Shown: positions 13,662 through 31,392, counted from the first letter of the stretch. The stretch is DNA of 32,000 nucleotides from Hyphomicrobiales bacterium (GCA_003577315.1 QEVK01000004.1:21446-53445), one strand, 5' to 3'. Numbers and translations: made by a program. The notes: generated from the letters alone by a model not told the origin.

Positions 13662-13669
13662 TCCCCGCC

Positions 13670-13695: not shown

Positions 13696-13743
13696 GCCCT
13701 CCCCCGTCCCCGAAACCCCCTCGGCGCAAAGGTCCGTCAAACC

Positions 13744-15635: not shown

Positions 15636-15647
15636 GAAAGGACCCCC

Positions 15648-16424: not shown

Positions 16425-16456
16425 GCTTCAACGACCGACCAGGAGGACGAGGCGCC

Positions 16457-17395
16457 ATGGCCCGCAAAATGGACAAGATCATCATCACCTGCGCCGTGAC
16501 GGGCGGGGTGCATACGCCCACCATGTCGGACGCGCTGCCGGTGACGCCGGACGAGATCGCCAGCCAGTCGATCGAGGCCGCCGAGGCCGGCGCCTCGATC
16601 ATCCACCTGCACGCCCGCGACCCGCAGACCGGCCGGCCGACGCCGGACCCGGCGGTGTTCATGCAGTTCCTGCCGCGCATCAAGCAGGCGACCGACGCGG
16701 TGGTCAACATCACCACCGGCGGCGGCCTCGGCATGACGGTCGAGGAGCGGCTGGCGGCCGCGCTCGCCGCCGAGCCGGAGATGTGCTCGCTCAACATGGG
16801 CTCGATGAACTTCGCGCTCCACCCGATGGCCGGCAAGTACAAGGAGTGGAAGCACGACTGGGAGAAGCCGTTCCTGGAGGCCAGCGACGACTTCATCTTC
16901 CGCAACACCTTCCGCGACATCGCCCGCATCATCAAGCAGCTCGGCGACGGCTGCGGCACGAAGTTCGAGCACGAGTGCTACGACATCGGCCACCTCTACA
17001 ACCTCGCCCACTTCGTCGACGCCGGGCTGGTGAAGCCGCCCTTCCTGGTGCAGTCGATCTTCGGCATCCTCGGCGGCATCGGCGCGGAGATGGAGAACAT
17101 CATGTTCATGAAGCAGACGGCGGACCGGCTGTTCGGCGACGACTACGTCTGGTCGGTGCTGGCGGCCGGGCGCTACCAGATGCCGTTCGTGACCCAGGCG
17201 GCGATGCTGGGCGGCAACGTCCGCGTCGGGCTGGAGGATTCGCTCAACATCGGCAAGGGCAAGCTCGCCAGCTCCAACGCCGAGCAGGTGCGCAAGGTGC
17301 GGCGCATCCTCGAGGAGCTGGGCTACGAGATCGCCAGCCCCGCCGAGGCGCGCTCCGTGCTCGGCCTCAAGGGCGGCGACATGGTCAAGTTCTAG
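16457..17395 (+). CDS. BKACE-family beta-keto acid cleavage enzyme (DUF849; 3-keto-5-aminohexanoate cleavage enzyme-like)
   Basis: This is the C-terminal 312 aa of the 14237-17395 ORF, starting MARKMDKIIITCAVTGG. It shows IIHLHARDP (Zn His pair), VNITTGGG, NMGSMNF and NVRVGLEDS. Confidence 0.85.
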   Translation: MARKMDKIIITCAVTGGVHTPTMSDALPVTPDEIASQSIEAAEAGASIIHLHARDPQTGRPTPDPAVFMQFLPRIKQATDAVVNITTGGGLGMTVEERLAAALAAEPEMCSLNMGSMNFALHPMAGKYKEWKHDWEKPFLEASDDFIFRNTFRDIARIIKQLGDGCGTKFEHECYDIGHLYNLAHFVDAGLVKPPFLVQSIFGILGGIGAEMENIMFMKQTADRLFGDDYVWSVLAAGRYQMPFVTQAAMLGGNVRVGLEDSLNIGKGKLASSNAEQVRKVRRILEELGYEIASPAEARSVLGLKGGDMVKF

Positions 17396-17409
17396 GACGG
17401 GGCGCGAGG

Positions 17410-18423
17410 ATGCCGGCAAATCCCATCGACGGCTTCGAGGTCGATCCGGCCTCGATCCGCACCGTCGGCCGCGACCTGCAGCGGCCGGAATGCATCCTGG
17501 CCGAGCGCGACGGCTCGCTGTGGGCGGCCGACGCCCGCGGCGGGGTCGTCCACATCGCCCCGGACGGGTCGCAGCGCATCGTCACCCAGACGAGCGGCGC
17601 GGCCTTCGCCAACGCCACCGACGACGCCAGGCGCTTCACCGAGGGCACGCTGCCCAACGGGCTGGCCTTCGCCCGCAACGGCGACATCCTGATCTCCAAT
17701 TTCGGCACCGACCGGCTGGAGGTCATGAAGCGCACCGGCGAGACCGAGGTGCTTCACGACCGCATCGACGGAAGGCCCATCGGCAAGGTCAACTTCGTGC
17801 TGCGCGACAGCAGGGATCGCGTGTGGCTGACGGTGTCCACCACCATCCCGAACTGGATGCAGGCCATCAGCCCCGCCATCCGCGACGGCTTCGTGGCGGT
17901 CGCCGACGACAAGGGCCTGCGCATCGTCGCCGACGGCTTCCACTTCACCAACGAGATCAGGCTCGACGCGAAGGAGGAGTGGCTCTACGTCGTCGAGACC
18001 TGCGGCATGAGGGTGACGCGGCTGCGCGTCGGCGAGGACGGCTCGCTGTCGCAGCGCGAGACCTTCGGCCCCGAAAGCCACGGCGCCTTCATCGACGGCA
18101 TCGCCTTCGACGCCTTCGGCAACCTGTGGGGCACGCATGTGATGACGGACCGCATCTTCGCCATCACGCCGGACGGCGACCTGCGCATCCTGCTCGACGA
18201 CGACAGGGGCTCGCAGGCGGGCAAGGCGCTGATCGAGGCGTTCCACGCCGACCGCGCCACGCCGGAGCTGATGCTGACCTGCGGCGGCGCCATCGCGCCG
18301 TGGATGGCGAGCGTGACCTTCGGCGGGCCGGACCTGCGCAACCTCTATATCGGCAGCCTGCGCGGCACGACGATCCCCTGGTTCCGCGCGCCGGTGGCGG
18401 GCCTGCCGATGGCGCACTGGTAG
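17410..18423 (+). CDS. SMP-30/gluconolactonase/LRE-like beta-propeller protein (putative lactonase/hydrolase)
   Basis: This is 337 aa taken from the 16783-18423 ORF, starting MPANPIDGFEV. It shows PECILAERDGSLWAAD, PNGLAFARNGDILISNFG, TNEIRLDAKEEWLYVVET, DGIAFDAFGNLWGT and LYIGSL. Confidence 0.75.
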   Translation: MPANPIDGFEVDPASIRTVGRDLQRPECILAERDGSLWAADARGGVVHIAPDGSQRIVTQTSGAAFANATDDARRFTEGTLPNGLAFARNGDILISNFGTDRLEVMKRTGETEVLHDRIDGRPIGKVNFVLRDSRDRVWLTVSTTIPNWMQAISPAIRDGFVAVADDKGLRIVADGFHFTNEIRLDAKEEWLYVVETCGMRVTRLRVGEDGSLSQRETFGPESHGAFIDGIAFDAFGNLWGTHVMTDRIFAITPDGDLRILLDDDRGSQAGKALIEAFHADRATPELMLTCGGAIAPWMASVTFGGPDLRNLYIGSLRGTTIPWFRAPVAGLPMAHW

Positions 18424-18442: not shown

Positions 18443-18964
18443 TCATGCGCTGCGGCCCGGGTCGCGGGAGAACAGCGCCGCCGCCAGCGCCTCCGGCACG
18501 TCGCCTGCCCCGGCATGGCGCAGAAAGGCCGCGAGATTGGCCCGCGCCAGCTCCTGCGCGGGCCGGCGCGCAGGCTCCAGCGTTCCGGCCCAGCGATGCA
18601 GCATGGCCTGCTCGACCTGCTCGGCCTCCAGCTCGCGCCGCTTGATCTCCTCGCGCAGCCTCGCGCAACCCTCCTCCTCCATGAAAGGCTGCCGCTTCAT
18701 CCAGCTGCGGGCGGCGCGCAGCGGCAGGATGACGTTCTCGCGCCACGCCCCGATCAGGGCGTCGGCCCGCCCGATCGCCGGGCCGTCGGCCTCCACGCCG
18801 CGCTCGGCCCCCGCCCATAGCCAGAACATCAGCAGGTTCACGTCCACGCCATGGGCGTCCTGGAGCGCCAGGCAGGCCGGCGCCACGCCGGGCACCGCAT
18901 ATGTGCGAAGGCTGAAGCGCCACAGCGGATTGTGAAGGTCGAGCGCGTCCGCACGGTCGCTCAT
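18443..18964 (-). CDS. Conserved hypothetical protein, DUF2390/TIGR02444-like
   Basis: The 173-aa ORF begins MSDRADALDLHNPLWRFSLRTYAVPGVAPACLALQDAHGVDVNLLMFWLWAG. The N-terminal pattern matches my recollection of DUF2390 proteins. Coding looks real (ATG start, normal composition), but the family name is unverified. Confidence 0.5.
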   Translation of the reverse strand: MSDRADALDLHNPLWRFSLRTYAVPGVAPACLALQDAHGVDVNLLMFWLWAGAERGVEADGPAIGRADALIGAWRENVILPLRAARSWMKRQPFMEEEGCARLREEIKRRELEAEQVEQAMLHRWAGTLEPARRPAQELARANLAAFLRHAGAGDVPEALAAALFSRDPGRSA

Positions 18965-19061
18965 GCGCCGGCTCCGTTCCTCGCCGCGGCAGCGGCGGCC
19001 TCATATCGCGGCGGGCAGCCTCCGCCGCAGGCCGATGAATCCATTGCGCTTTCCCGAATCG

Positions 19062-19078
19062 CATAACCCATGGTTATG
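19062..19078. promoter_or_regulatory. Candidate operator upstream of the hydantoinase-like operon
   Basis: A perfect 7-3-7 inverted repeat CATAACC-CAT-GGTTATG lies 91 bp upstream of the ATG at 19169. It sits in the 204-bp divergent region between 18964 and 19169. Confidence 0.3.
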
Positions 19079-19168
19079 ACTCTGCCTCAAACCTGCATTG
19101 GAAGTAGCGGTTGCCTGCCACTATCGTCCCCTTCCTGTCTGCTCTAACAGAAGGGTCAGGGCCGTCGC

Positions 19169-20530
19169 ATGAGTGACTTCGATCTTGTTGTAACCGGCAG
19201 GGTGGTTTGCACAAGCCGGGTGATCGAAAGGGGCTTCGTTGCCGTTCGCGACGGAAAGGTCGTGATGGTCGGCGCCGGCGAGGGGCCGGCCGCGCGCGAC
19301 AGGCAGGATTTCGGCCCGGCCTATGTGCTGCCGGGCGCGATCGACGGGCAGGTGCATTCGCGCTCGCAGAAGGATGTCGAGGGGTTCGCCTGGTCGACGC
19401 GCGCGGCGGCGGCCGGCGGCGTCACCACCGTCGTCGACATGCCCTACGACGACGGCACCCTGATCTGCGACCGCGAGAGCTTCGAGGCCAAGAAGGAGAG
19501 CGCCGGCGAGGAGGCGCGGGTCGATTTCGCGCTCTACGCCACCATCCGCCCGTCCGAGGGCGCGGCGCGCATTGCCGAGCTCGCCGCGGCCGGCGCCAGC
19601 GCGTTCAAGTTCTCCACCTTCGACACGCATCCCGACCGCTTCCCCCGCATTCCCACGCCGCTGCTCTACGAGGCCTTCTGCGCCATCGCGCCGACCGGGC
19701 TCATGGGCGGCGTGCACAACGAGAACGACGAATGCGTGCGCCATTTCTCCGAAAAGGTGCGCGCGGCCGGGCTGGGCGACTATCGCGCCCACGGCATGAG
19801 CCGCCCGCCCGTGACCGAGACGCTGGCGATCGCCGAGGTCTACGAGATCGCGGCGGCCACGGGCTGCCCGGCGCACATCGTCCACTGCTCCGTCGGGCAC
19901 GGCTACGAGATGGCTGCCGCGTATCGGCAGCAGGGCGTGGACGCCACCGTCGAGGCCTGCATCCACTATCTCGTCCTCAGCGAGGAGGACGACGTGGCGC
20001 GCCTGGGCGGCAAGGCCAAGATCAACCCGCCGGTGCGCGTGCGCGCCGAGCGCGAGGCGCTGTGGAGCCATCTCGCCGCCGGCAACGTCACCATCGTCTC
20101 CACCGATCACGTGAGCTGGTCGGAGGACCGCAAGACCGACCCGGACATGCTGAAGAACGCCTCCGGCGTTCCGGGGCTCGAGGTCCTCTACACCCTGCTC
20201 GTCGACGGGCTCCTGGCGCGCGGCCTGCCGCTCACCCATGCGGCGCGGCTGCTGGCGGCGAACCCGGCCCGGCTGTTCCGTATGAGCCATGTCAAGGGCG
20301 CGCTGGAGCCGGGCTGCGATGCGGATATCGTCGTTCTCGGCCATCGTCCCTGCCGCTACGATGCCCGGGCCAGCGGGCACAACTTCGCCGGCTGGAGCCC
20401 CTACGAGGGCATGGAGCTGACGTGGCGGCCGGTCGCCACCTTCGTGCGCGGCCAACTCGTCTTCGACGGCCGCGACGTGCTGGCGCAACCCGGCGACGGC
20501 CGCTTCGTGCGGCCGCCCGAGCTGACGTGA
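19169..20530 (+). CDS. Cyclic amidohydrolase (allantoinase/hydantoinase/dihydroorotase-like) with a variant QxH first metal motif
   Basis: The 453-aa ORF has the beta-1 motif PGAIDGQVHS where HxH is expected. The remaining ligand positions are kept: GASAFKFS (carbamylated Lys position), GGVHNEN, AHIVHCS and IVSTDHVSW. Confidence 0.85.
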   Translation: MSDFDLVVTGRVVCTSRVIERGFVAVRDGKVVMVGAGEGPAARDRQDFGPAYVLPGAIDGQVHSRSQKDVEGFAWSTRAAAAGGVTTVVDMPYDDGTLICDRESFEAKKESAGEEARVDFALYATIRPSEGAARIAELAAAGASAFKFSTFDTHPDRFPRIPTPLLYEAFCAIAPTGLMGGVHNENDECVRHFSEKVRAAGLGDYRAHGMSRPPVTETLAIAEVYEIAAATGCPAHIVHCSVGHGYEMAAAYRQQGVDATVEACIHYLVLSEEDDVARLGGKAKINPPVRVRAEREALWSHLAAGNVTIVSTDHVSWSEDRKTDPDMLKNASGVPGLEVLYTLLVDGLLARGLPLTHAARLLAANPARLFRMSHVKGALEPGCDADIVVLGHRPCRYDARASGHNFAGWSPYEGMELTWRPVATFVRGQLVFDGRDVLAQPGDGRFVRPPELT

Positions 20531-20538
20531 GGACGAGG

Positions 20539-21852
20539 ATGCAGCGCGAAGCCGGCACCGCCCCGGTCCATCCCTCCAACCTGCCGGTCGACGGCGGGCG
20601 CATGTGGAGCGACCTGACGGCGCTGGCCTCCATCACCGAGCCGGACCGCCCGTGGACCCGCCGTTCGTTCACGCCGCGCTTCCTCGAAGGGCGCGCCTGG
20701 CTCGAGCGGCGGTTCCGGGAGGCGGGGCTTTCGACGCGCCTCGACGCGGCGGGCAACCTGATCGGCCGCCGCGAGGGGCGGGTTCCCGGCGCGCCGGCGA
20801 TCATGCTCGGCTCGCATTCCGACACCGTCCCCTCGGGCGGCCGCTTCGACGGCGTCGCCGGGGTGATCGCGGCGCTCGAGGTCGCCCGCGCGCTCGCGGC
20901 GGCCGGCACGGAGCTCGACCACCCGCTGGAGATCGTCGACTTCCTCGCCGAGGAGCCGAGCGAATACGGGCTTTCCTGCGTCGGCAGCCGGGGCATGGCC
21001 GGGGCGCTGGACGGCGGGCTGCTGGAGCTGACCGGGCCGGGCGGCGAGCGGCTCGACGCGGCCATCGACCGCGTCGGCGGCAACGTCGCCGCCCTGGCGC
21101 AGGCGCGGCGCGACGACGTCGCCGCCTTCCTCGAGCTGCACATCGAGCAGGGGCCCGTGCTTGAGGCGACCGGCACGGATGTCGGCATCGTCACCGCCAT
21201 CGTCGGCATCACGCGCCTCGAGATCGTCTTTTCCGGCCAGGCCGGCCATTCCGGCACGACGCCGATGGACCGCAGGCAGGACGCCGGCGTCGCCGGCGCG
21301 CGCGCGATGGTGTGGCTGCGCGACGAGGCGCGCGCGCTCGCCGCGGCCGGCGACGGCTATTTCGTCGCCACGGTCGGCATCGCCGAGGTCAGGCCCGGCG
21401 GCGCCAACGTGGTGCCGGGCGAGATGCGGCTCGTCGTCGACCTGCGCGGCGAGCGGCGCGGGACGATGGAGGATTTCCTGGCGCGGCTCGGCGCGGAAAT
21501 GGCGCGGATCGCCGGGGAGGAGGGCGCGCGCGTGTCGGTGGCGACCCTCTCCGACAGCCTGCCAGCCCATTGCGACGCGACGCTGCGCGCGGCGCTGGCG
21601 GCGAGCGCGCGCAGCCTCGGCGTCTCGTCGCTCGACATGGCCTCCGGCGCCGGTCACGACGCGGCGTTCCTCAGCCGCATCGCGCCCGCGGCGATGGTGT
21701 TCATCCCCTGCCGCGAGGGCAGGAGCCACTGTCCCGAGGAATGGACCGAGCCGGGTCAGCTTGCGGTCGGCGCCAGCGTCCTGCTTGAAGCGGTGCGCGC
21801 GCTCGACGCCCGTCTTTCCCGGCGGGACGCGCCAGGCGGAGAGGAAGCATGA
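20539..21852 (+). CDS. M20-family N-carbamoyl-L-amino-acid / ureido-acid amidohydrolase (AmaB/HyuC/AllC-like)
   Basis: This is 437 aa taken from the 19207-21852 ORF. It shows RRSFTPRFLEGRAWLERRFREAGL, DAAGNLIGRREG, IMLGSHSDTVPSGGRFDGVAGV, FLAEEPSEYG, ELHIEQGPVLE and SGAGHDA. The start could alternatively be the downstream Met of GGRMWSDL. Confidence 0.85.
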   Translation: MQREAGTAPVHPSNLPVDGGRMWSDLTALASITEPDRPWTRRSFTPRFLEGRAWLERRFREAGLSTRLDAAGNLIGRREGRVPGAPAIMLGSHSDTVPSGGRFDGVAGVIAALEVARALAAAGTELDHPLEIVDFLAEEPSEYGLSCVGSRGMAGALDGGLLELTGPGGERLDAAIDRVGGNVAALAQARRDDVAAFLELHIEQGPVLEATGTDVGIVTAIVGITRLEIVFSGQAGHSGTTPMDRRQDAGVAGARAMVWLRDEARALAAAGDGYFVATVGIAEVRPGGANVVPGEMRLVVDLRGERRGTMEDFLARLGAEMARIAGEEGARVSVATLSDSLPAHCDATLRAALAASARSLGVSSLDMASGAGHDAAFLSRIAPAAMVFIPCREGRSHCPEEWTEPGQLAVGASVLLEAVRALDARLSRRDAPGGEEA

Positions 21853-23261
21853 AGGAGGGGCAGGACATGGCGGGCACGGCGCCGTCGCGAAAGGACGAAT
21901 GGACATTCCGGGCCTATCTCGCCGAGCTCGACCGCCGCGGCGAGCTGGCCACCGTCGCCGCGCCGGTGCATGAGGACCCGTTCGGCATCTCCGCCTGCCT
22001 CTCGGCGCTGCATCAGGGGCCGGCCCTGCACTTCACCCATCCCGGCCCGACCGGCCTCACCGTCGCCGGCAACCTGCTCAACTCCATCGACAGGGTGGGG
22101 CTCGGGCTCCGGCTCGACCGCGGCGCGCTGCCGGCGGCGATCGCCTCGGCCATCGGCCGGCCGCTCAGGCCGCGCGAGGTGGCGCGGGGCGCATGCCAGG
22201 AGGTGGAGATGGAGCCGGATCTCGGCCTGCTCCCCATCCCGCGCTTCTTCGAGCACGAGACCGGCCCCTACATCACCGCCGGCTGCATCGTGGCCCGCGA
22301 CAGCCGCACCGGCCTCGGCAACCTGTCCTATGCGCGGCTGAAGCCGCTCGGCCCCGACCGCGCGCTCGTCGGCATCGCGCCCAACCACCACCTGGCGGTG
22401 ATGGCGCGGGCCGCAGCCGCGCGCGGCGAGCGCCTGCCCATCGCCGTCACCGTCGGCAACCATCCCGTCGTCCTGGTGGCGGCCGCCCTCTACCTCAAGC
22501 TGGGCGAGGACGAGATGGAGGTCGCAGGCGCGCTGCAGGGCGCGCCGGTGGGCGTCGTGCGCTGCCGCACGAGCGACCTGCTGGTGCCGGCCGATTGCGA
22601 GGTGGTGATCGAGGGCGAGATCGAGGTCGGCGAGACCGTGGAGGAAGGCCCGGTCAGCGAGTATCACGGCATGTACGAGCGCTACGGCGCCGGCCACGTC
22701 GTCAGGATCACGGCGATCACCCGCCGCCGCGACGCCATCTTCCAGGTCATCGAGCCGGGCTTCCACATCGAGCACCTTTTGATCGGCGGCGTCGCCATCG
22801 CCGCCGGGCTCGAGCAGCACCTCAAGGGCTTCGTCCCCGCGGTGGAGCGCGTCTCCGTGCTCGACAGCGGCTGCGGCCGGCTGTCGGCGGTGGTGGTGCT
22901 TGGGCCGGACCGCAAGCCCGGCGACCCCGTCAAGGCGATCATGGGCGCGCTGTCGGCCGTCAACCTCATCAAGCAGGTCACGGTGGTCGACAACGACATC
23001 GACCCCTGGGACGAGTTCCAGGTGCAGTACGCCGTCGCCACCCGCATGCGCGCCGATCGCGACATCGTCGTCGTGCCCGGGGCGCGCACCGACCGCTCCG
23101 AGCCGATGAAGCTCGGCGGCACCATCGCCAAATACGGCTTCGACGCCACCAGGCACGCCGAGGATCGCGACGACTGGACGCCGGCCCGCGCGCCGGCGGA
23201 CGCCTACCGGGACGCGGCGCCGATCATCGACGCCATACGCGCCGGCAAGCGCAGGATCTGA
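21849..23261 (+). CDS. UbiD-family (prFMN-dependent) decarboxylase/carboxylase homologue
   Basis: The 470-aa ORF shows LAELDRRGELATV, GPYITAGCIVARDSRTGLGNLSYAR, PNHHLAV, GEDEMEVAGAL, EEGPVSEYHGMY and VTVVDNDIDPWD. The ATG at 21849 overlaps the upstream stop as ATGA. The alternative ATG at 21867 has a stronger SD (AGGAGG, 8-nt spacer). Confidence 0.85.
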   Translation: MKEGQDMAGTAPSRKDEWTFRAYLAELDRRGELATVAAPVHEDPFGISACLSALHQGPALHFTHPGPTGLTVAGNLLNSIDRVGLGLRLDRGALPAAIASAIGRPLRPREVARGACQEVEMEPDLGLLPIPRFFEHETGPYITAGCIVARDSRTGLGNLSYARLKPLGPDRALVGIAPNHHLAVMARAAAARGERLPIAVTVGNHPVVLVAAALYLKLGEDEMEVAGALQGAPVGVVRCRTSDLLVPADCEVVIEGEIEVGETVEEGPVSEYHGMYERYGAGHVVRITAITRRRDAIFQVIEPGFHIEHLLIGGVAIAAGLEQHLKGFVPAVERVSVLDSGCGRLSAVVVLGPDRKPGDPVKAIMGALSAVNLIKQVTVVDNDIDPWDEFQVQYAVATRMRADRDIVVVPGARTDRSEPMKLGGTIAKYGFDATRHAEDRDDWTPARAPADAYRDAAPIIDAIRAGKRRI

Positions 23262-23273
23262 CGAGGGAGCGAC

Positions 23274-24371
23274 ATGAGACGAATTCTGACAGCGAGCGAT
23301 GTCGAGGCCGCGGTGAAGGGCGGCGCGGTGTTCGCGGCGGGCGGCGGCGGCTGGGCCGATCACGGCCGCATGCTCGGCACCGCCGCCGTCAACGCCGGCA
23401 CGCCCGAGCTCGTCAGCATGGACGAGGTGCCGGACGACGCCTGGATCGCCACCGCCGCCGCCATCGGCGCTCCCGCCGGGACGACGCAGTGGCAGATGCT
23501 GGGCGTCGACTACGTCAAGGCGGTCGAATTGCTTCAGCAGGAGCTGGGCGAGCCGGTCTACGGCCTCATCATCGGCCAGAACGGCAAGTCGAGCACGCTC
23601 AACGCCTGGCTTCCCTCGGCGATCCTGGGCACGCGGGTCATCGACGCCGTCGGCGACATCCGCGCCCATCCCACCGGCGACATGGGCTCGCTCGGCCTCG
23701 CCAACAGCCCGGAACCGACGATCCAGACCGCGGTCGGCGGCAACCGCGCCAACGATTCCTACATCGAGCTGGTGATCCGCGGCGCCACAGCGAAGGTCTC
23801 GCCGGTGCTGCGCAAGGCCTCCGACATGTCCGGCGGCTTCATCGCCTCCTGCCGCAACCCGGTCCGCGCCTCCTATGTGCGCGAGCACGCCGCGCTCGGC
23901 GGCATCTCGATGGCGCTGGAGCTCGGCGCGCGCATCATCGCGGCGGAGCCGAAGGGCGGCCGCGCCGTCATCGACGCGATCTGCGACAGCCTCAAGGGCT
24001 CGATCGTCGCCTCGGGGCCGGTCGCGAGCAAGGCGGTGGCCTATACGCAGGAGGCCTTCGACATCGGCACCGTCACCGTCGGCCAGGGCGGCGGCGCCTG
24101 CACGCTGCACGTCATGAACGAGTACATGGCCGTCGACGGCGCCGGCGGCGAGCGCCTCGCCACCTATCCCGACGTCATCACGACGCTCGACGACGACGGC
24201 GTGCCGGTCAGCGTCGGCGAGGTGCGCGAGGGCATGCGCTTGCACGTCCTGCACGTTCCGCGCCACGTCATTCCGCTTTCGTCGAGCGTCAGGGATCCCA
24301 GTGTCTACCCGGTGGTGGAAAAGGCGCTTGGAATCGACATCGCGAGTCACGTTCTGGGGGTGAAGGCATGA
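23274..24371 (+). CDS. DUF917-family protein (PF06032-type; hydantoinase-associated family)
   Basis: The 365-aa ORF begins MRRILTASDVEAAVKGGAVFAAGGGGWADHGRMLG...PDDAWIATAAAIGAP. The N-terminal GGGG motif and overall length match my recollection of DUF917. Its stop overlaps the next ATG as ATGA. Confidence 0.65.
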   Translation: MRRILTASDVEAAVKGGAVFAAGGGGWADHGRMLGTAAVNAGTPELVSMDEVPDDAWIATAAAIGAPAGTTQWQMLGVDYVKAVELLQQELGEPVYGLIIGQNGKSSTLNAWLPSAILGTRVIDAVGDIRAHPTGDMGSLGLANSPEPTIQTAVGGNRANDSYIELVIRGATAKVSPVLRKASDMSGGFIASCRNPVRASYVREHAALGGISMALELGARIIAAEPKGGRAVIDAICDSLKGSIVASGPVASKAVAYTQEAFDIGTVTVGQGGGACTLHVMNEYMAVDGAGGERLATYPDVITTLDDDGVPVSVGEVREGMRLHVLHVPRHVIPLSSSVRDPSVYPVVEKALGIDIASHVLGVKA

Positions 24372-26023
24372 GCAAGGTCTTTTCGGTGACGGGAGGCACG
24401 GCGCTGCGCTGCAAGGGCTGGCGGCAGGAGGGCCTGCTGCGGCTTCTGGAGAACGTTCTCGCCGTCGGCGAGAACCCGTCGGAGCTGATCGTCTACGCCG
24501 CGCTCGGCAAGGCCGCCCGGGACTGGGCCTCGCACGACCGCATCGTCGAGACGCTCAGGACGATGGAGGAGGACGAGACGCTGATCGTCCAGTCCGGCAA
24601 GCCGATCGGCCTGATGAAGACCCATGCCGCCGCCCCCGTCGTCGTCATGGCCAACTGCAACATGGTCGGCCAGTGGGCGAAGGCCGAGAACTTCTACGAC
24701 TGGGAGAAGCGCGGCCTGATCTGCTGGGGCGGGCTGACCGCGGGCGACTGGCAGTATATCGGCTCGCAGGGCGTCATCCAGGGCACCTACGAGATCTTCA
24801 TGCGCATCGCCGAGCGCCATTTCGGCGGCAGCCTCTCCGGCCGCTTCGTCCTGACGGCGGGGCTCGGCGGCATGGGCGGCGCGCAGCCGCTGGCCGGCCG
24901 GCTGGCCGGCGCCGCCATCCTGTGCGTCGAGATCGACGAGGCGCGCATCCGCAAGCGGCTCGACATCGGCTTCCTCGACGCGGTCGCCCCCGACCTCGAC
25001 GCCGCGCTCGCCATGATCCGCGAGGCGCAGGCCGCGGGCCGGGCGCTGTCGGTGGGGCTTTGCGCCAACGCCGCCGACGTCTATCCCGAGATCGTGGCGC
25101 GCGGCATCGTGCCGGACGTCGTCACCGACCAGACCTCGGCGCACGATCTCCTCTACGGCTACATCCCCGCCGGCTACACGCTCGACCAGGTGCGCGCGAT
25201 GCGCGGCAGCGACCCCCAGGCGCTGATGGCGGCGAGCCGCGGCTCCATCGTGCGCCATGTCGGCGCCATGCTCGCCATGCGCAGGGCCGGCGCCGTGGCC
25301 TTCGACAACGGCAACCTCATCCGCACGCAGGCGAAGGAAGGCGGCGTCGCCGACGCCTTCGACATCCCGATCTTCACCGAGGCGTTCCTGCGGCCGCTCT
25401 TCGCCCGCGCCATCGGCCCGTTCCGCTGGATCGCGCTGTCCAACGACCCGGCCGACATCGCCGCGATCGACGATTTCATCCTCGAGCGCTTCCCCGACAA
25501 CCGCATCGTCACCAACTGGATCGGGCTGGCGCGCAAGCACGTCCCCTTCGAGGGGTTGCCGGCCCGCATCGCCTGGCTCGGGCATGGCGAGCGCACCGAG
25601 CTCGGCCTCGCCGTCAACCGCATGGTGCGCGAGGGCAGGCTCGCCGGCCCGGTCGCCTTCACCCGCGACCATCTCGACGCCGGCGCGATGGCGCATCCCA
25701 ACATCATGACCGAGCGCATGCGCGACGGGTCGGACGCCATCGCCGACTGGCCGTTGCTCAACGCCATGCTCAACTGCTCGTCGCAGGCGGACCTCGTGGC
25801 GATCCATTCCGGCGGCGGCGGCTATTCCGGCTACATGACGAGCGCCGGCGTCACGCTGGTGGCCGACGGCAGCGAGGCCGCCGACCGGCGGCTGCGGCTC
25901 ACGCTCGACAACGACACCGCGCTCGGCGTCATGCGCTACGCCGATGCCGGCTACGAGGAATCCTTCGAGGAGGTCGAGGCCAAGGGCCTCGGCTATTTCG
26001 ATCTTCGCCCGGCCAGGGGCTGA
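24368..26023 (+). CDS. Urocanate hydratase (HutU) family paralogue, divergent
   Basis: This is 551 aa taken from the 22193-26023 ORF. It shows LIVQSGKPIG, YIGSQGVIQGTYE, the NAD site TAGLGGMGGAQPLA, VTDQTSAHD, GPFRWIAL, GLPARIAWLG, RDHLDAG and MRDGSDAIADWPLLNA. Several canonical urocanase positions differ (see findings). Confidence 0.88.
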   Translation: MSKVFSVTGGTALRCKGWRQEGLLRLLENVLAVGENPSELIVYAALGKAARDWASHDRIVETLRTMEEDETLIVQSGKPIGLMKTHAAAPVVVMANCNMVGQWAKAENFYDWEKRGLICWGGLTAGDWQYIGSQGVIQGTYEIFMRIAERHFGGSLSGRFVLTAGLGGMGGAQPLAGRLAGAAILCVEIDEARIRKRLDIGFLDAVAPDLDAALAMIREAQAAGRALSVGLCANAADVYPEIVARGIVPDVVTDQTSAHDLLYGYIPAGYTLDQVRAMRGSDPQALMAASRGSIVRHVGAMLAMRRAGAVAFDNGNLIRTQAKEGGVADAFDIPIFTEAFLRPLFARAIGPFRWIALSNDPADIAAIDDFILERFPDNRIVTNWIGLARKHVPFEGLPARIAWLGHGERTELGLAVNRMVREGRLAGPVAFTRDHLDAGAMAHPNIMTERMRDGSDAIADWPLLNAMLNCSSQADLVAIHSGGGGYSGYMTSAGVTLVADGSEAADRRLRLTLDNDTALGVMRYADAGYEESFEEVEAKGLGYFDLRPARG

Positions 26024-26094
26024 AGCGGCGGCCGGGCGGGAGACCGCGGCCGCGCAGACCGTGAAATGAACAGGAAACAAGAGGGAACAGGCAA

Positions 26095-27129
26095 ATGAAC
26101 GTTTCAAGACTGCTTATCGCCGCGGCGACGACACTGTCGATCTCCGCATTCTCGTTCGCCGCGACCGCGCAGGAGAAGGTCACCTTGCGGGTGCACTCCT
26201 TCTCGAGCCCCGTCGCGCCCGAGGCCGTCCACATGGTCCTGCCCTTCATCGAGAAGGTGCGCGAGGAGTCCGGCGGCCGTCTCGAGCTGGAATTCTACCC
26301 GGGCATGCAGCTCGGCGGCCGCGCCAGCGACCTGATCCAGCAGCTCGAGGACGGCGTGGTCGATTTCGTGGTGACGATCCCCGGCGTGACGCCCGGCCGC
26401 TTCGCCGGCCTCGAGGGCATGGACATGCCCTTCACCAATGTCGGCACCTCGGCCGGCCAGACCGCGTCGCTGCTGGCCTTCGCCGACAAGTGGCTGCTGG
26501 ACAACGAGTTCGAGGGCATCAAGATCATCCACATGCACGCCACGGACGCCGGCGTGCTCCACACCACCAGGAAGAAGATCGACAACGCCGCCGCCATGCA
26601 GGGCCTGCGCATCCGCGCGCCGGGCCGCTATGTCGGCGAGGCCATCACCCTTCTCGGCGGCACCCCGGTCGGCCTCGCCCTCGGCGAGGTCTACGAGGCG
26701 CTGGAGCGCGGCCAGATCGACGGCATGGCCATCAACTGGGCGATCATGCCGTCCTACAAGTTCGAGGAGGTCACGAAGTTCAGCCTCGAGACGCCGCTCT
26801 ACCAGACGCCGATCATGGTGCTGATGCGCCAGGAATCCTACGACAACCTGCCGGACGACCTGAAGGCGGTGATCGACAACAACATCGGCATCGAGAAGTC
26901 GGTCGAGGTGGCGAAGAAGATCGACGAGCTGACGGTGCAGGCCAAGCAGGTGGTGAAGGACGCCGGCAACGAGATCTACGCGCTCGACGACGCCGAAAGG
27001 ACGCGCTGGATCGAGACCGCCACGCCGGTCTACAAGATCTGGATCGACGAGATGAACTCCAGGGGCCTGCCGGGTCAGGAGATGTTCGACGACATCCTCG
27101 CCATCACGGCCGCCAACGGCCGCGAATAG
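26095..27129 (+). CDS. TRAP transporter substrate-binding protein (DctP family), Arg-containing carboxylate type
   Basis: The 344-aa ORF has signal peptide MNVSRLLIAAATTLSISAFSFAATAQ. Its core MQGLRIRAPGRYVGEAITLLGGTPVGLALGEVYEALERGQIDG retains the KIR/RIR arginine. Confidence 0.85.
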   Translation: MNVSRLLIAAATTLSISAFSFAATAQEKVTLRVHSFSSPVAPEAVHMVLPFIEKVREESGGRLELEFYPGMQLGGRASDLIQQLEDGVVDFVVTIPGVTPGRFAGLEGMDMPFTNVGTSAGQTASLLAFADKWLLDNEFEGIKIIHMHATDAGVLHTTRKKIDNAAAMQGLRIRAPGRYVGEAITLLGGTPVGLALGEVYEALERGQIDGMAINWAIMPSYKFEEVTKFSLETPLYQTPIMVLMRQESYDNLPDDLKAVIDNNIGIEKSVEVAKKIDELTVQAKQVVKDAGNEIYALDDAERTRWIETATPVYKIWIDEMNSRGLPGQEMFDDILAITAANGRE

Positions 27130-27148
27130 GCAGGAAGCGGGCACTGCG

Positions 27149-27682
27149 ATGCGAGAAACCCGTCACGGGCGCCTGAAGCGCCTCCTGCTGCTCCCCTGCA
27201 AGGGAGCAGCCCTGTTCGGCGGCGTCTTCATGATCGCCGGCGTGCTCGTGGTCGTCGCGAGCGTCATGGGCGGCATCCTCGGCAAGCCGCTCCTGGGCGA
27301 TTCCGAGATCGTCGACAGGTTCATCGGGATCGCGATCTTCTGCTTCCTGCCCTACTGCCATCTGATGGGCGGGAACATCGTCATCGACTTCTTCGCCAAG
27401 CCGTTCCCGCAGGCCGTCCAGGACGGGCTGGACGTCGTCATGAACCTGCTGTTCGCCGCGCTCGCCGCCTTCATCTCGTGGCGGCTCATGGCGGGCGGCA
27501 TCACCACCTTCGAGCGCGGCCGCCAGAGCATGTTCCTGCAACTGCCGGAGTGGCCCGTCTATCTGGTCGCAAGCATCGTCACCGTCCTTTGGGTGCTCGT
27601 CATCCTCTTCGCGGCCTACGAGGCGTTCCTGCGCATGACCGGGAAGCTCGAGGCCGCGCGCGGGAGCACGGATTTCGGATAG
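27149..27682 (+). CDS. TRAP transporter small permease (DctQ)
   Basis: The 177-aa ORF has four TM segments and lies between DctP and DctM. The exact start is uncertain, because an internal Met at MIAGVLVV is also possible. Confidence 0.75.
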   Translation: MRETRHGRLKRLLLLPCKGAALFGGVFMIAGVLVVVASVMGGILGKPLLGDSEIVDRFIGIAIFCFLPYCHLMGGNIVIDFFAKPFPQAVQDGLDVVMNLLFAALAAFISWRLMAGGITTFERGRQSMFLQLPEWPVYLVASIVTVLWVLVILFAAYEAFLRMTGKLEAARGSTDFG

Positions 27683-27735
27683 GCGCGGGCGCCTCGCGTC
27701 CCGCACGCTCCTCGAAACGATTGGGGAAACAGAGA

Positions 27736-29052
27736 ATGGACAGGATCGAGATCGGCCTGTTGATGTTTGCGGCGTCGCTGGTGCTGATCGCGCTCAGGAT
27801 GACGGTCGCCGGCGCGATGCTGCTCGTGGGCGGGCTCGGCTATGCGGCGATCGTCGGCTGGTCGCCGCTGCTCAGCACCATGAAGACGATGACGTACTCG
27901 AAATTCTCGAGCTACTCGTTGTCGGTGCTGCCCTTCTTCCTGCTGATGGGAGAATTCGCGACCAAGGGCGGCATGAACAGCCGCCTGTTCCGCGCCGCGC
28001 GCGCATGGCTGGGCCACTGGCGCGGCGGCCTCGCCATGGCCACCATCGGCGGCTGCGCCTCCTTCGGCGCGGTCTGCGGCTCGTCCATCGCCACGGCCGC
28101 CACCATGTCGCAGGTGGCGCTGCCGGAGATGCGCAAGCTGGGCTATTCGCCGGCGCTCTCGACCGGAACGCTGGCGGCCGGCGGCACGCTCGGCATCCTC
28201 ATCCCGCCGTCGATCATCCTCGTCATCTACGCCATCTACACCGAGCAGTCGGTGGGGGCGCTGTTCGCGGCGGCGATCGTGCCGGGCATCATCGCCATCG
28301 TGCAGTACATGCTCGTCGTGGCGCTCTACAGCCGCTTCGTCAAGGGCGCGGCGCCGCGGCTGGAGAAGGCGAGCTGGCGCGAGCGCATCGAGGCGACGCT
28401 GGAGATCTGGCCGATCGGCATCGTCTTCGTGCTCATCGTCGCCGGCATCTATCGCGGCTGGTTCTCGCCCACCGAGGCGGCGGCCATCGGCGCCTTCGCC
28501 ACCCTGGTGCTCGCCGTCGTCCAGGGCGGCATGCGCTGGAAGGGCTTCATCGAGGCGGTGCTCTCGGCCGGCTCGCTGTCGGCGATGATGTTCCTCATCA
28601 TGCTGTCGGCCGAGCTCTTCGCCGCCGCGCTGGCGCTGTCCCAGCTTCCCAGCGAAATCTCGAAATGGGTGGTCGGCCTCGATTTCGGGCCCTACACGAT
28701 CCTGTTCTGCATCATCGTGATCTACCTGGTCCTGGGATGCTTCATGGAATCGCTGGCGATGGTGCTGCTGACGCTGCCGGTCTTCGTGCCGGTGATGCTG
28801 TCGCTCGATTTCGGCGTGCCGAGCAACGCGGTGCTGGTGTGGTTCGGCATACTGGTGCTGATGAGCGTCGAGATCGGCATGATAACGCCGCCCTTCGGCC
28901 TCAACCTGATCGTCATCAACTCGCTGGCCAAGGACATCCCGATGAAGGAGACCTATGTCGGCGTGCTGGGCTTCGTCGGCATGGACATCGTGCGCGTGAT
29001 GGCGGTGCTGTTCTTCCCCATACTTCCGCTGTGGCTGCCGGGCCTGATGTAG
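27736..29052 (+). CDS. TRAP transporter large permease (DctM)
   Basis: This is 438 aa taken from the 27478-29052 ORF, starting MDRIEIGLLMFAASLVLIAL. It shows LPFFLLMGEF, GGCASFGAVCGSSIATAATM and MITPPFGLNLIV. It is the same length as the DctM at 14319. Confidence 0.9.
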   Translation: MDRIEIGLLMFAASLVLIALRMTVAGAMLLVGGLGYAAIVGWSPLLSTMKTMTYSKFSSYSLSVLPFFLLMGEFATKGGMNSRLFRAARAWLGHWRGGLAMATIGGCASFGAVCGSSIATAATMSQVALPEMRKLGYSPALSTGTLAAGGTLGILIPPSIILVIYAIYTEQSVGALFAAAIVPGIIAIVQYMLVVALYSRFVKGAAPRLEKASWRERIEATLEIWPIGIVFVLIVAGIYRGWFSPTEAAAIGAFATLVLAVVQGGMRWKGFIEAVLSAGSLSAMMFLIMLSAELFAAALALSQLPSEISKWVVGLDFGPYTILFCIIVIYLVLGCFMESLAMVLLTLPVFVPVMLSLDFGVPSNAVLVWFGILVLMSVEIGMITPPFGLNLIVINSLAKDIPMKETYVGVLGFVGMDIVRVMAVLFFPILPLWLPGLM

Positions 29053-29074
29053 GGACGGCGACGCTTGCCGCACC

Positions 29075-29113
29075 CGCCCCCCGCTTCAGGCCTGCGCCCT
29101 GAGGCGGGGGGCG
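29075..29113. terminator. GC-rich hairpin at the convergent dctM / lysR junction (possible bidirectional terminator)
   Basis: CGCCCCCCGCTTCAGG (29075-29090), loop CCTGCGC, then CCTGAGGCGGGGGGCG (29098-29113). The 16-bp arms have one mismatch and no U-tract on either strand. The hairpin overlaps the last codons of the LysR gene. Confidence 0.4.
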
Positions 29114-30015
29114 AGCCTGTCCGCCTCGCACACTTCCCGCAGCGAATCGAGGAACTCGCCGGCCCGCTTCGTGAAGGGGTGGCGCTCGCGCGTGTGGGCA
29201 TAGATGCCGAAGCGCAGCGGCGGGTCGATCGGCCGCACCGAAACGGCCAGATAGGGCGCGGCGGCGGTGAACTCGTCGACGACGGCGCAGCCCGTCCCCG
29301 CCGCCACGATGTTGCGGGCGATGTAGTAGGTCTGGACCTGGACCGGCGGCGAGAAGGCGAGCCCGCTCTCCTCCATGGCGGCCTTGAGCTGCAGGCCCAG
29401 ATAGTGGGTGTCGTTGAGCCCGATCAGCCGCTTCGCGTCGATCTTCGCCAGCTTCATCGGCATGCCGTTCAGCGAGGGGCTCCTGCCGGGCGTGTCGATA
29501 TAGACCATCTCGCCGGTCGAGATCAGCTTCGAGACGATGCCCGGCGTCTCGCCGCCATATCCCTCGCTCGGCCCGAAGGAGAGGCCGACGTCGAACTCGC
29601 GGCCGAGCAGGCCGTCCATCATCTCCCGCTCGTGCCGCGTGGCGACCTCGATGAAGGTGCGCGGGCGCCGGCTGCGGAACAGGTGGATCGCGCGCGGCAC
29701 CACGCCCATGCCGAGGCTCGGCAGGCAGGCGATGCGCAGATGTATCTCCAGGCCCTCGCGCAGCACCGTCGCCGTATGGCGGGTGCGCTCGAGCGCCTCG
29801 TAGACGCGCTCTATGTCGAGGAAGAGCGTTTCGGCCTCGTCCGTCGCCAGGAGCCTGCCGCGCAGCCGGCGGAAGAGCTGGAAGCCCAGCTGCTGCTCGG
29901 CGTGCTTCAGGATCTTGCTGACCGCCGGCTGGGTGATCGAAAGGGCGGCGGCGGCGGCGCTGGTCGAGCCCGTGCGCCGGACGGCATGAAGAACTTCGAT
30001 ATGCCGCAAACGCAT
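29086..30015 (-). CDS. LysR-family transcriptional regulator
   Basis: This is 309 aa taken from the 29086-31413 ORF, starting MRLRHIEVLHAVRRTGSTSAAAAALSITQPAVSKILKHAEQQLGFQLFRR (LysR HTH), followed by a substrate-binding domain. The ATG is the complement of 30013-30015. Confidence 0.88.
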   Translation of the reverse strand: MRLRHIEVLHAVRRTGSTSAAAAALSITQPAVSKILKHAEQQLGFQLFRRLRGRLLATDEAETLFLDIERVYEALERTRHTATVLREGLEIHLRIACLPSLGMGVVPRAIHLFRSRRPRTFIEVATRHEREMMDGLLGREFDVGLSFGPSEGYGGETPGIVSKLISTGEMVYIDTPGRSPSLNGMPMKLAKIDAKRLIGLNDTHYLGLQLKAAMEESGLAFSPPVQVQTYYIARNIVAAGTGCAVVDEFTAAAPYLAVSVRPIDPPLRFGIYAHTRERHPFTKRAGEFLDSLREVCEADRLAPRLRAQA

Positions 30016-30195: not shown

Positions 30196-31392
30196 ATGAC
30201 CGCATCCGCGCGCGCGCCGCTCGACGGCGTCGTCGTCCTCGATTTCAGCCGCGTCCTGGCCGGCCCGTTCTGCTCGGCCCTGCTGGCGGATCTCGGGGCG
30301 GACGTCATCAAGGTCGAGCCGCCGCAGGGCGACGACCAGCGCTGGATGGGCGCGTTCAGGGACGGCATCAGCGTCAGCTTCGAGCTGATCAACCGCAGCA
30401 AGCGCTCGATCCGCCTCGACCTGAAGACCGAGGAGGGGCGAAAGATCGCCCTGGCGCTGGCCGGGCGCGCCGACGTGGTGATCGAGAACTTCCGCCCCGG
30501 CGTCGCCGAGCGCCTCGGCATCGGCTACGAGGCGCTGAAGGCGCGCAGGCCCGACATCGTCTACTGCTCGATCTCCGGCTTCGGCCAGGCGGGCCCGATG
30601 GCGCAGTTTCCCAGCTACGACGTCGTCGCGCAGGCGCTGTCGGGGATGATGAGCATCACCGGCATGCCCGACGGCGAGCCGGTGCTGGTCGGCGATTCGA
30701 TCGGCGACACGGTCTCCGGCCTCTACTGCGCGCTCGGCATAGCGCTCGCCCTGTTCCGCCGGGCGTCCACGGGCGGGGGCGCGCATATCGACATCGCCAT
30801 GTTCGACGCCCTGTTCAGCCTGCTGCCGACGGCGCTGGCCTCCTGGCAGGTGACGGGCGAGGCGCCGGGCAGGGCCGGCAACCAGCACCCGCTGTCGGCG
30901 CCCTTCGGGGCCTTCGCCGCCCGCGACGGCCTGTTCATGCTGGCGATCGCCAACAAGGCGCTGTTTTCCCGCTTCGCCGGGCTGATCGGCCGGCCGGAAC
31001 TCGCCGCCGACCCCCGGTTCGACAGCGACCCGGCGCGCCGGACCAACCGGGCGGCGCTTCGCGAAATCATCGAGGAATGGGCGCGCGACAGGAGCGCGGC
31101 CGCCGTGGTCGCGCTGCTCGGCGAGGCCGGCATTCCCGCCTCGACGATCTGGAACGTCGCCGAGGCGGCGGCGAGCGACCATGCGGCGAGCCGCAAGCTG
31201 ATGAGCGAGGTCGAGCATCCGCGTCTCGGCCGCCTGCGCCTGCCGGAGCAGCCGCTGCATTTCGCCGGTCTGGGGCGCGGCGCGGTCCGGCGCGCGCCCG
31301 ATCTCGGCGCCGACGGGGCCGACATACTCGGCCGCCTGCTCGGCATGGAGCCGGACGAGGTGCGCCGCCTCGTCGAGAGCGGCGCAATCTGA
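30196..31392 (+). CDS. Family III CoA-transferase (CaiB/BaiF/Frc type)
   Basis: The 398-aa ORF shows PLDGVVVLDFSRVLAGPFCSALLADLGADVIKVEPP, ENFRPGV, GFGQAGP and YDVVAQALSGMMSITG. RBS GGGAGGG lies upstream. Confidence 0.88.
   Translation: MTASARAPLDGVVVLDFSRVLAGPFCSALLADLGADVIKVEPPQGDDQRWMGAFRDGISVSFELINRSKRSIRLDLKTEEGRKIALALAGRADVVIENFRPGVAERLGIGYEALKARRPDIVYCSISGFGQAGPMAQFPSYDVVAQALSGMMSITGMPDGEPVLVGDSIGDTVSGLYCALGIALALFRRASTGGGAHIDIAMFDALFSLLPTALASWQVTGEAPGRAGNQHPLSAPFGAFAARDGLFMLAIANKALFSRFAGLIGRPELAADPRFDSDPARRTNRAALREIIEEWARDRSAAAVVALLGEAGIPASTIWNVAEAAASDHAASRKLMSEVEHPRLGRLRLPEQPLHFAGLGRGAVRRAPDLGADGADILGRLLGMEPDEVRRLVESGAI

Follow-up and report, generated by a model that had tools for sequence, protein, structure and literature searches.

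A probable ergothionase-less ergothioneine-type operon with a UbiD-family decarboxylase and an aromatic-acid-type TRAP importer in a Hyphomicrobiales genome

Ergothioneine has been widely studied as an antioxidant in the diet and in microbes; its turnover in the environment is thought to run via a single lyase-initiated pathway. The ertABCDE genes of Burkholderia sp. HME13 reportedly encode an ergothioneine catabolic pathway, and a five-step reconstitution from a Paenibacillus is said to exist. We take the NCBIfam models NF058529, NF058530, NF058538 and NF058540 to represent this ertABCDE-type pathway. HmfF and HmfG are a prenylated flavin mononucleotide (prFMN)-dependent 2,5-furandicarboxylate decarboxylase and a flavin prenyltransferase. 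In Cupriavidus sp. LA-1, a UbiD-family xanthine-8-carboxylate decarboxylase acts with UbiX in lumazine degradation (PMC12391406). Rhodopseudomonas palustris has two known hydroxycinnamate importers, the tripartite ATP-independent periplasmic (TRAP) system TarPQM and the ATP-binding cassette (ABC) system CouPSTU (PMC3610893). Here we analyze a 32,000-nucleotide stretch of a Hyphomicrobiales bacterium genome (GCA_003577315.1, QEVK01000004.1:21446-53445; hereafter the window) and, within it, an eight-gene operon on the plus strand (19169-29052). The operon combines four enzymes of the ert type with a UbiD-family protein and a TRAP importer. It is probably an ert pathway without ergothionase, in which UbiD and the aromatic-acid importer replace the usual front end.

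Family calls were made with curated NCBIfam equivalog models, the bit score being compared with the model cut-off in each case (Table 1). Four products passed their cut-offs: a hydantoin-5-propionate amidohydrolase (ErtD), an N-carbamoyl-L-glutamate amidohydrolase (ErtE), a thiohydantoin desulfurase and a thiourocanate hydratase. A first-pass annotation of the window had proposed that four of the five enzyme types of ergothioneine catabolism are represented, and all four were borne out. Because these products pass curated equivalog cut-offs, the core is predicted to be the already described lower ergothioneine chemistry, rather than a histidine-utilization (Hut), allantoin or undescribed system. 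The first-pass label of an 'undescribed imidazole/thio-imidazole acid catabolic system' was thus too strong, as the trunk has been described and annotation models for it exist. ErtD scored 283–290 bits on allantoinase models, below their cut-offs (283 versus 358 for TIGR03178), and ErtE scored 216 bits on the AllC model TIGR03176 (cut-off 598). These scores argue against orthology of the first two genes with AllB and AllC. The desulfurase reached only 278 bits on the model for its S-methyl variant. On the hutU model the hydratase gained 707 bits, above the broad cut-off of 375 and far under its 1023 bits on NF058530, which speaks against an ordinary HutU; its score on the S-methyl hydratase variant model lay below that 707-bit value. 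The best PDB match of the hydratase was 7NED (840 bits), which we take to be the Paenibacillus thiourocanate hydratase (the file itself is labelled only 'urocanate hydratase'). Other full-length urocanase-family entries gave 577–636 bits.

The locus thus shares steps 2–5 with the ert pathway, and its trunk genes are 70–80% identical to their counterparts in canonical ert clusters. It differs in that the window operon has no ergothionase gene, a TRAP system replaces the major facilitator superfamily (MFS) carrier, a UbiD gene lies inside the operon, and DUF2390 and ubiX genes are near. With the Hut pathway it has in common a urocanase homologue and analogous step-2 chemistry. However, the window has no HutH, HutI, HutG or HutF, and ring opening would lead to glutamate via hydantoin, not imidazolone. 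What is new here is the UbiD/UbiX/DUF2390 module and the substrate entering through it; the trunk was already known. A full-text search, with the primary ert papers outside its scope, returned no paper linking UbiD, UbiX or DUF2390 to catabolism of ergothioneine, thiourocanate or hydantoin-propionate.

All eight open reading frames (ORFs) were found at the coordinates given by the first-pass annotation, and its junction sizes were exact: 8 bp, a 4-bp ATGA overlap, 12 bp, an ATGA overlap, and 71, 19 and 53 bp, in order. Each ORF has the high third-position GC content expected of real genes in this DNA (70% GC over the window). The Pfam assignments were Amidohydro_1, Peptidase_M20, UbiD (N, core and C), S-Me-THD/DUF917 (N and C), Urocanase (three domains), DctP, DctQ and DctM. 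The tight or overlapping junctions suggest that the eight genes are cotranscribed as a single unit. The UbiD gene is translationally coupled within it, through the ATGA overlap with the ErtE gene at 21849. The inventory was complete for these eight genes; it had missed the DUF2390 gene, a convergent LysR gene and a nearby ubiX.

The UbiD product carries three Pfam UbiD domains. Its best PDB match was 6H6V/6H6X (E 3e-59, ∼40% identity over 414 residues), presumably HmfF, the 2,5-furandicarboxylate decarboxylase; E. coli UbiD, the indole-3-carboxylate decarboxylase InD, AroY, HudA and Fdc1 were more distant. Across 84 aligned clade members, N158, S160, R163, H180, H181, E266 and E271 are invariant, as are the N-x-S-x-A-R motif, the H-H pair and the E-G-P-V-S-E motif. 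We take these motifs to be the metal and prFMN ligands and the Glu-Arg-Glu catalytic set of Fdc1 and HmfF. Since the catalytic residues are invariant, UbiD is predicted to be an active prFMN decarboxylase, related to but distinct from HmfF, and the first-pass call of a catalytically intact UbiD agrees with this. The two share domain architecture, the N-x-S-x-x-R, E-G-P-x-x-E and His motifs, and a UbiX partner near by. In contrast to HmfF, the window protein is encoded among ert genes, has Ile for R304, and carries two invariant motifs of its own clade, SEYHGMYE.YG and PG(F/Y)H.EH. No hmf genes were found near UbiD, so neither the gene context nor the residue pattern is that of HmfF. Homologues of this UbiD are automatically named 'furandicarboxylate decarboxylase 1' or 'polyprenyl-hydroxybenzoate decarboxylase'. 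In view of the ert context, the R304-to-Ile change and the clade-specific motifs, the furandicarboxylate label is doubtful, and both names are probably wrong. The xanthine-8-carboxylate decarboxylase offers a parallel, as a prFMN-dependent UbiD that is encoded in an N-heterocycle cluster and decarboxylates a ring carbon of the imidazole type (PMC12391406). Its pathway and partner enzymes are different, and the two are likened here by description, not by sequence.

The binding protein of the TRAP importer falls in the TarP-like aromatic-acid clade. Its best PDB matches were 5IM2, 5I5P/5I7I, 5IGA/5IZZ and 7NR2/7NSW (E 1e-50 to 1e-59, ∼40% identity), presumably aromatic-acid- or hydroxycinnamate-binding TRAP proteins of the TarP group. 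The Arg of its LRIRAPG motif aligns with an Arg of the 5IM2 protein that we take to be the carboxylate binder. The protein thus resembles that of TarPQM in clade and in this Arg; it differs in being only ∼40% identical and in its expected ligand, an imidazole-thione acrylate rather than a hydroxycinnamate. The earlier suggestion that the binding protein suits an anionic acid and not a betaine is supported by the Arg and by the aromatic-acid relatives, and an anionic 2-thioimidazole acid is the most likely substrate for uptake by the cluster. Other UbiD-type ert clusters have, instead of TRAP, an ABC importer with a Peripla_BP_6 protein, presumably the Pfam family of CouP.

Annotation of every credible ORF in the 32-kb window revealed no hutH, hutI, hutG, hutF, hutC, HAL-family (histidine ammonia-lyase) or ubiX gene, in line with the first-pass statements that the Hut genes and an ammonia-lyase (ergothionase) are absent. 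A metagenome contig shares 7134 bp with the window at 100% identity and reaches 7 kb beyond the window end. This extension encodes two acyl-CoA dehydrogenases, a tandem-double LysR protein (607 aa) and a divergent 186-aa PF02441 flavoprotein, UbiX. The ubiX search that the first-pass annotation had proposed therefore had a positive outcome, 6.6 kb beyond the operon and outside the window. No HAL-family lyase was found in the window or in the following 7 kb, which together cover ∼39 kb of the source genome.

For a set of loci chosen independently of UbiD, we scanned metagenome contigs with the desulfurase. This gave 80 loci, reduced to 79 when the source contig (155 kb, 100% identical) was set aside; in 37 of these, termed well-flanked, at least 5 kb was available on both sides. 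UbiD was counted at ≥40% identity. UbiD without a non-MIO lyase, that is, one lacking the Ala-Ser-Gly motif of the methylideneimidazolone (MIO) cofactor, was present at 15 of the 79 loci (8 of the 37 well-flanked ones), and a non-MIO lyase without UbiD at 30 (22). Neither was seen at 34 loci (7 well-flanked). No locus had both (0/79 and 0/37), so the UbiD-bearing relatives share the absence of ergothionase (0 of 15). This exclusion gave two-sided Fisher p values of 3e-4 (79 loci) and 2e-4 (37 loci), phylogeny being ignored. All 8 of the well-flanked UbiD loci have a TRAP or CouP-like Peripla_BP_6 ABC system beside them, as against 0 of the 22 lyase loci. In the well-flanked set, the Burkholderia-type MFS carrier occurred only with the lyase, and MIO-type HAL only with UbiD.

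Canonical ert clusters without UbiD were found in Burkholderia sp. JSH-S8, Rhizobium sp. SL42 and Paracoccus aminophilus pAMI4. That of JSH-S8 comprises desulfurase, hydratase, MFS carrier, lyase and porin, with ErtD and ErtE divergent. The lyases of canonical clusters have GSIGEA-D or GSIGCA-D instead of the MIO motif, a loss that is presumably an ergothionase trait, and share only 23–30% identity with the MIO-type HALs found in UbiD clusters. We interpret the trunk as having two mutually exclusive entries. Entry A would be ergothionase, often with the MFS carrier, for the betaine ergothioneine. Entry B would be UbiD with an aryl-acrylate-type importer, to which some clusters add an MIO-type HAL that would act on a primary-amine analogue of histidine. 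On this view the window cluster is of type B.

A UbiD-seeded scan of a 185,579-species collection, with one genome per species, likewise yielded 80 loci, the best UbiD match being 69–71% identical. When window proteins and proteins of annotated relatives were mapped onto these loci, three recurrent contexts emerged. Type I has the window order, ErtD-ErtE-UbiD-desulfurase-hydratase-DctPQM, and was seen in Rhodoplanes tepidamans and many metagenome-assembled genomes (MAGs) of Burkholderiaceae and Rubrivivax; it is rearranged in Maritimibacter and has a different TRAP system in Thalassospira marina. Culturable carriers of this cluster or of a related one are Rhodoplanes tepidamans DSM 9987, Alloyangia mangrovi, Mangrovicoccus algicola and Thalassospira marina CSC3H3. 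The eight-gene order thus spans Alpha- and Betaproteobacteria, and the three anomalies pointed out in the first-pass annotation (no lyase, the clade of the TRAP protein and an intact UbiD) are conserved in relatives and not accidents of one genome. Most type I relatives continue with an MIO-motif (Ala-Ser-Gly) HAL, a GlcD-like flavin adenine dinucleotide (FAD) dehydrogenase and an aromatic-type aminotransferase, a trio missing in the window and in four type I MAGs. Type II occurs in Rhizobiaceae, Devosia and Martelella, for example on plasmid pAtS4e of Allorhizobium ampelinum S4. Here a LysR gene is divided from UbiD-UbiX-SBP5-ICL/PEP-mutase-like (isocitrate lyase/phosphoenolpyruvate)-ABC-DUF2390-ErtD-ErtE-HAL, and no hydratase or desulfurase gene was found near. 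Type III consists of ErtD-ErtE-UbiD-UbiX, in some cases accompanied by an MFS carrier (Ensifer, Steroidobacteraceae, Paraburkholderia, Sphingomonas). Samples of the ErtD-like and ErtE-like proteins were taken across the three types, and every one scored above the cut-off of the ErtD or ErtE model. Protein-collection contexts added the order ErtD-ErtE-desulfurase-hydratase-UbiD-ABC (Peripla_BP_6)-x-UbiX-DUF2390-second UbiD, and TRAP genes divided from UbiD and a urocanase homologue.

Linkage was counted at the 55 UbiD loci of at least 18 kb, with partners within 10 kb of UbiD. ErtD homologues were linked at 43 of the 55 (78%), ErtE homologues at 36, UbiX at 35, DUF2390 at 21, and hydratase or desulfurase at 14–16 (25–29%).

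Further arrangements were seen among the UbiD clusters. A compact operon (L093:8547-14460) encodes a non-MIO HAL-family lyase, UbiD, an ErtD-like hydantoinase, an Asp/Glu-type (hydantoin) racemase and a CN-hydrolase carbamoylase; neither a urocanase nor a DUF917 gene is part of it. The lyase gene overlaps that of UbiD, which is 59% identical to the window UbiD, and the hydantoinase scores 552 bits, under the ErtD cut-off of 600. This operon may represent a different, hydratase-free route from betaine to amino acid. In some alphaproteobacterial MAGs (L020:15916-19204; L016, L021, L023), UbiD lies between the thiourocanate set and an S-methyl set, the latter with an S-methyl thiourocanate hydratase (957 bits versus a cut-off of 880) and a DUF917 paralogue (36% identical), and ubiX closes the cluster; from its genes, such a cluster appears to handle two urocanates with different 2-substituents. 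In UbiD-type clusters, the HAL (L013:17393-21395; L001-L003, L008, L010-L012, L015) retains two features typical of histidine ammonia-lyases, the MIO motif and a Ser-His pair, scores 537 bits against a hutH cut-off of 539, and has a ∼14-residue insertion. It is followed by the GlcD-like FAD dehydrogenase and an aromatic/aspartate-type aminotransferase, which suggests that the alternative feedstock is an analogue of histidine with a primary amine, 2-thiohistidine perhaps.

DUF2390, encoded divergently from the operon, may be an accessory of the UbiD/UbiX (prFMN) system. In type II clusters its gene directly precedes ErtD, and in Maritimibacter and Alloyangia it adjoins ubiX. Independent contexts include UbiD-DUF2390-UbiX (Xanthobacter), a near-overlap of UbiX and DUF2390, and UbiX-DUF2390-second UbiD, with copies at L100:7001-7531, L099:7001-7531 and L095:16068-16598. 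Of three DUF2390 contexts sampled at random, one had neither ubiX nor ubiD. The AlphaFold2 model is all-alpha (predicted local distance difference test 92.6), and a Foldseek search with it against the PDB gave no match. Identity with the known prFMN maturase PhdC was considered and rejected, PhdC being an HpaC-like flavin reductase.

From these assignments the following pathway can be proposed. The TarP-like system would import thiourocanate or a very close anionic 2-thioimidazole acid. The hydratase would add water to give thiohydantoin-propionate, from which the DUF917 desulfurase would free H2S, leaving hydantoin-5-propionate. ErtD would open the ring and ErtE would then release glutamate, so that the end products would be L-glutamate, H2S, NH3 and CO2. 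The trunk together with import of an anionic thio-imidazole acid is, in our judgement, highly probable. UbiD might strip an extra sp2-bound carboxyl group from an imported dicarboxylic imidazole-acrylate, as HmfF does on furan-2,5-dicarboxylate, and so supply the hydratase substrate; the ubiX downstream, and probably DUF2390, would serve it. This specific role as entry decarboxylase is proposed tentatively. Equally tentative is the idea that UbiD, UbiX and DUF2390 form a second front end in place of ergothionase, converting an imported imidazole acid such as carboxylated thiourocanate or its 2-oxo analogue.

Several points weigh against an ergothionase-less pathway entered through UbiD. The search for ergothionase covered ∼39 kb of the source genome, and the exclusion p values take no account of shared ancestry. 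Thiourocanate has one carboxylate, and the pathway to glutamate is chemically complete without UbiD. We know of no natural carboxylated thiourocanate. Of the residues that we take to contact the distal carboxylate in HmfF (H296, R304, R331), the His and R331 are kept, and the position aligned with R304 is an invariant Ile. The UbiD clade is tied to ErtD and ErtE more than to hydratase and desulfurase, and some operons pair UbiD only with lyase, hydantoinase, racemase and carbamoylase; a role strictly upstream of the hydratase therefore fails to explain the linkage pattern. We found no chemically consistent sp2-carboxylated precursor that would give hydantoin-5-propionate directly on decarboxylation, so the entry role does not account for UbiD in hydratase-less clusters.

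The locus could instead be an ordinary ergothioneine operon, with ergothionase encoded elsewhere in the genome, TRAP importing ergothioneine, and UbiD a passenger acting on an unrelated aromatic acid. The four ert equivalogs and the ∼39-kb reach of the lyase search are compatible with this, as is the import of a zwitterion, ectoine, by the TRAP system TeaA (cited in PMC11668362). A passenger, however, would not be expected to be translationally coupled and to keep the same position in two proteobacterial classes. In addition, UbiD and the non-MIO lyase never co-occur at the 79 loci, the lyase stands beside the same trunk genes at 30 UbiD-less loci, and the nearest solved relatives of the binding protein bind aromatic acids, not ectoine or betaine. 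We regard this explanation as improbable.

Somewhat less probable still is a second route parallel to the hydratase, in which UbiD would act on thiourocanate (or an analogue of urocanate) as Fdc1 does on cinnamate, by removing the carboxylate of the acrylic side chain. The vinyl-imidazole-thione so formed would then hydrate or tautomerize to a racemic 5-substituted (thio)hydantoin for hydantoinase and carbamoylase. The adjacent or overlapping lyase and UbiD genes at several loci would fit, and so would the L093 operon with its lyase, UbiD, hydantoinase, racemase and carbamoylase and no urocanase or DUF917; some UbiD enzymes do act on acrylic acids (PMC8379154). Within the window, though, such a reaction would compete with the hydratase for substrate and lose the carboxylate needed for glutamate. 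The sampled ErtD and ErtE proteins pass models for propionate substrates (the L093 hydantoinase, at 552 versus 600 bits, is the exception), and UbiD is closer to the (hetero)aromatic-acid decarboxylases HmfF, UbiD and InD than to Fdc1.

Urocanase uses NAD+ as electrophile, which is formally similar to a role that might be imagined for prFMN: a non-decarboxylating UbiD could catalyze a urocanase-like hydration of a 2-oxo analogue, or a cis-trans isomerization. Clusters with UbiD, ErtD and ErtE and no urocanase homologue otherwise lack a route to hydantoin-5-propionate, and a need set by an imported environmental substrate would fit both the exclusion with ergothionase and the acrylate-type importers. 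To our knowledge, nothing beyond (de)carboxylation has been described for the UbiD family, and the full decarboxylase catalytic set is conserved. We consider the hydration form very unlikely, and no less so the isomerase form, in which the substrate would be photo-isomerized imported thiourocanate. A Hut or purine/allantoin operon with misleading paralogues was rejected on the NCBIfam scores and has next to no probability: the hydratase does pass the broad hutU cut-off, and the superfamilies of the first two enzymes are those of allantoinase and allantoate amidohydrolase, yet the specific ert models score far higher and above their cut-offs, hutH, hutI, hutG and hutC are missing from the window, and neither pathway has a place for a DUF917 desulfurase.

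An ergothionase-less pathway would matter beyond this genome. A sizeable minority of ert clusters, 15 of the 79 metagenome loci and many genomes from two proteobacterial classes, lack the lyase and carry instead a conserved prFMN-dependent decarboxylase and aromatic-acid-type transporters. Should UbiD be a true pathway enzyme, this would point to an unrecognized pool of sulfur-imidazole metabolites or to cross-feeding on thiourocanate from other microbes; it would also add a new substrate class for UbiD and give DUF2390 a function. If a second front end does exist, soils and waters would contain an unrecognized natural dicarboxylate of the 2-thioimidazole (or imidazolone) kind, and DUF2390 would have its first function, as an accessory of the prFMN system. 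Database labels would also be corrected: those of the UbiD homologues, auto-named furandicarboxylate or polyprenyl-hydroxybenzoate decarboxylases, and that of the hydratase, widely annotated as plain urocanate hydratase.

Table 1. Predicted features of the window and of the contig that extends it (positions counted from the first nucleotide of the window)
Feature	Position	Strand	Basis or remark
TRAP binding protein, upstream operon	12597-13661	+	
Fused TRAP QM permease, upstream operon	13857-15635	+	
Cyclase/arylformamidase-like protein, upstream operon	15648-16424	+	
BKACE/DUF849-like enzyme, upstream operon	∼16457-17395	+	by reading of translation only
SMP-30/gluconolactonase-like protein, upstream operon	∼17410-18423	+	by reading of translation only
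DUF2390/TIGR02444 protein	18443-18964	-	divergent from operon; TIGR02444 107 bits (cut-off 48); Pfam DUF2390 match
Divergent promoter region	18965-19168		inverted repeat CATAACC-N3-GGTTATG at 19062-19078, possible LysR-type box
ErtD, hydantoin-5-propionate amidohydrolase	19169-20530	+	NF058538 765 bits (cut-off 600)
ErtE, N-carbamoyl-L-glutamate amidohydrolase, M20 family	20539-21852	+	NF058540 589 bits (cut-off 520)
UbiD-family (prFMN-dependent) decarboxylase, HmfF-related clade	21849-23261	+	three Pfam UbiD domains; TIGR00148 264 bits (cut-off 245)
Thiohydantoin desulfurase (DUF917/S-Me-THD-like; ErtC type)	23274-24371	+	NF058529 604 bits (cut-off 440)
Thiourocanate hydratase (urocanase paralogue; ErtB type)	24368-26023	+	NF058530 1023 bits (cut-off 930)
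TRAP substrate-binding protein, DctP family, TarP-like aromatic-acid clade	26095-27129	+	Pfam DctP
TRAP small membrane subunit DctQ	27149-27682	+	Pfam DctQ
TRAP large membrane subunit DctM	27736-29052	+	Pfam DctM; TIGR00786 298 bits (cut-off 268)
GC-rich hairpin	29075-29113		between convergent dctM and LysR genes
LysR-family regulator	29086-30015	-	LysR models match; HTH_1 and LysR_substrate recorded for identical metagenome-contig gene
ubiX, 186 aa	6.6 kb downstream of operon		PF02441; divergent from 607-aa LysR gene; on overlapping metagenome contig, 100% identical over 7134 bp

The operon is bordered by two elements that the first-pass annotation had called a perfect palindrome and a hairpin with a 16-bp stem. 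The former, CATAACC-CAT-GGTTATG, does have perfect 7-nt arms, but these are separated by 3 nt. Inverted repeats of this 7-3-7 form number 14 in the window, and a search of 16 related loci did not find the motif upstream of ErtD. The repeat is thus weak evidence by itself, and its candidacy as a conserved operator was rejected. It does fit the T-N11-A pattern of a LysR-type box. A sigma-70 consensus scan of the divergent promoter region gave no match. The hairpin is present (arms 29075-29090 and 29098-29113, 16 nt each, 7-nt loop), with 15 of 16 positions paired (94%), and it overlaps the stop codon of the convergent LysR gene. It has no T-tail, which explains why a consensus terminator scan made no call there; it is likely, judging from its structure, to be a bidirectional terminator. 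The LysR protein encoded beyond it may regulate either the operon or the CoA-transferase genes next to it. An Rfam scan of the window found no RNA family match.

The 607-aa LysR protein divergent from ubiX consists of two complete tandem LysR units (∼33.7-36.3 kb in window coordinates; L089:8818-11384). Over-long LysR proteins (440–623 aa) also flank UbiD clusters in Allorhizobium ampelinum (UbiD-UbiX), Ensifer (ErtD-ErtE-UbiD-UbiX) and Thalassospira marina, the last cluster having no annotated UbiX.

Other genes of the window include those of a metal ABC system and its accompanying Fur-family regulator, gnd, and a separate operon upstream (11870-18423, plus strand) in which a TetR regulator precedes TRAP, BKACE and SMP-30 genes (Table 1). 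On the far side, a family-III CoA-transferase gene (30196-31392, plus strand) is followed past the window end by the two acyl-CoA dehydrogenase genes (L089:5330-8864). The same trio adjoins the ert cluster of Paracoccus aminophilus pAMI4 (L085:4555-7901). Speculatively, it could oxidize a reduced side chain, for example that of 2-thio-imidazole-propionate to thiourocanate via CoA esters. Finally, metagenome contig NODE_949 of ENA ERZ869903 is 99.9% identical to the window from 21588 on and diverges upstream, inside ErtE, where an SBP_bac_1 ABC transporter replaces ErtD and most of ErtE. The breakpoint reflects either a strain-level rearrangement or an assembly chimera.

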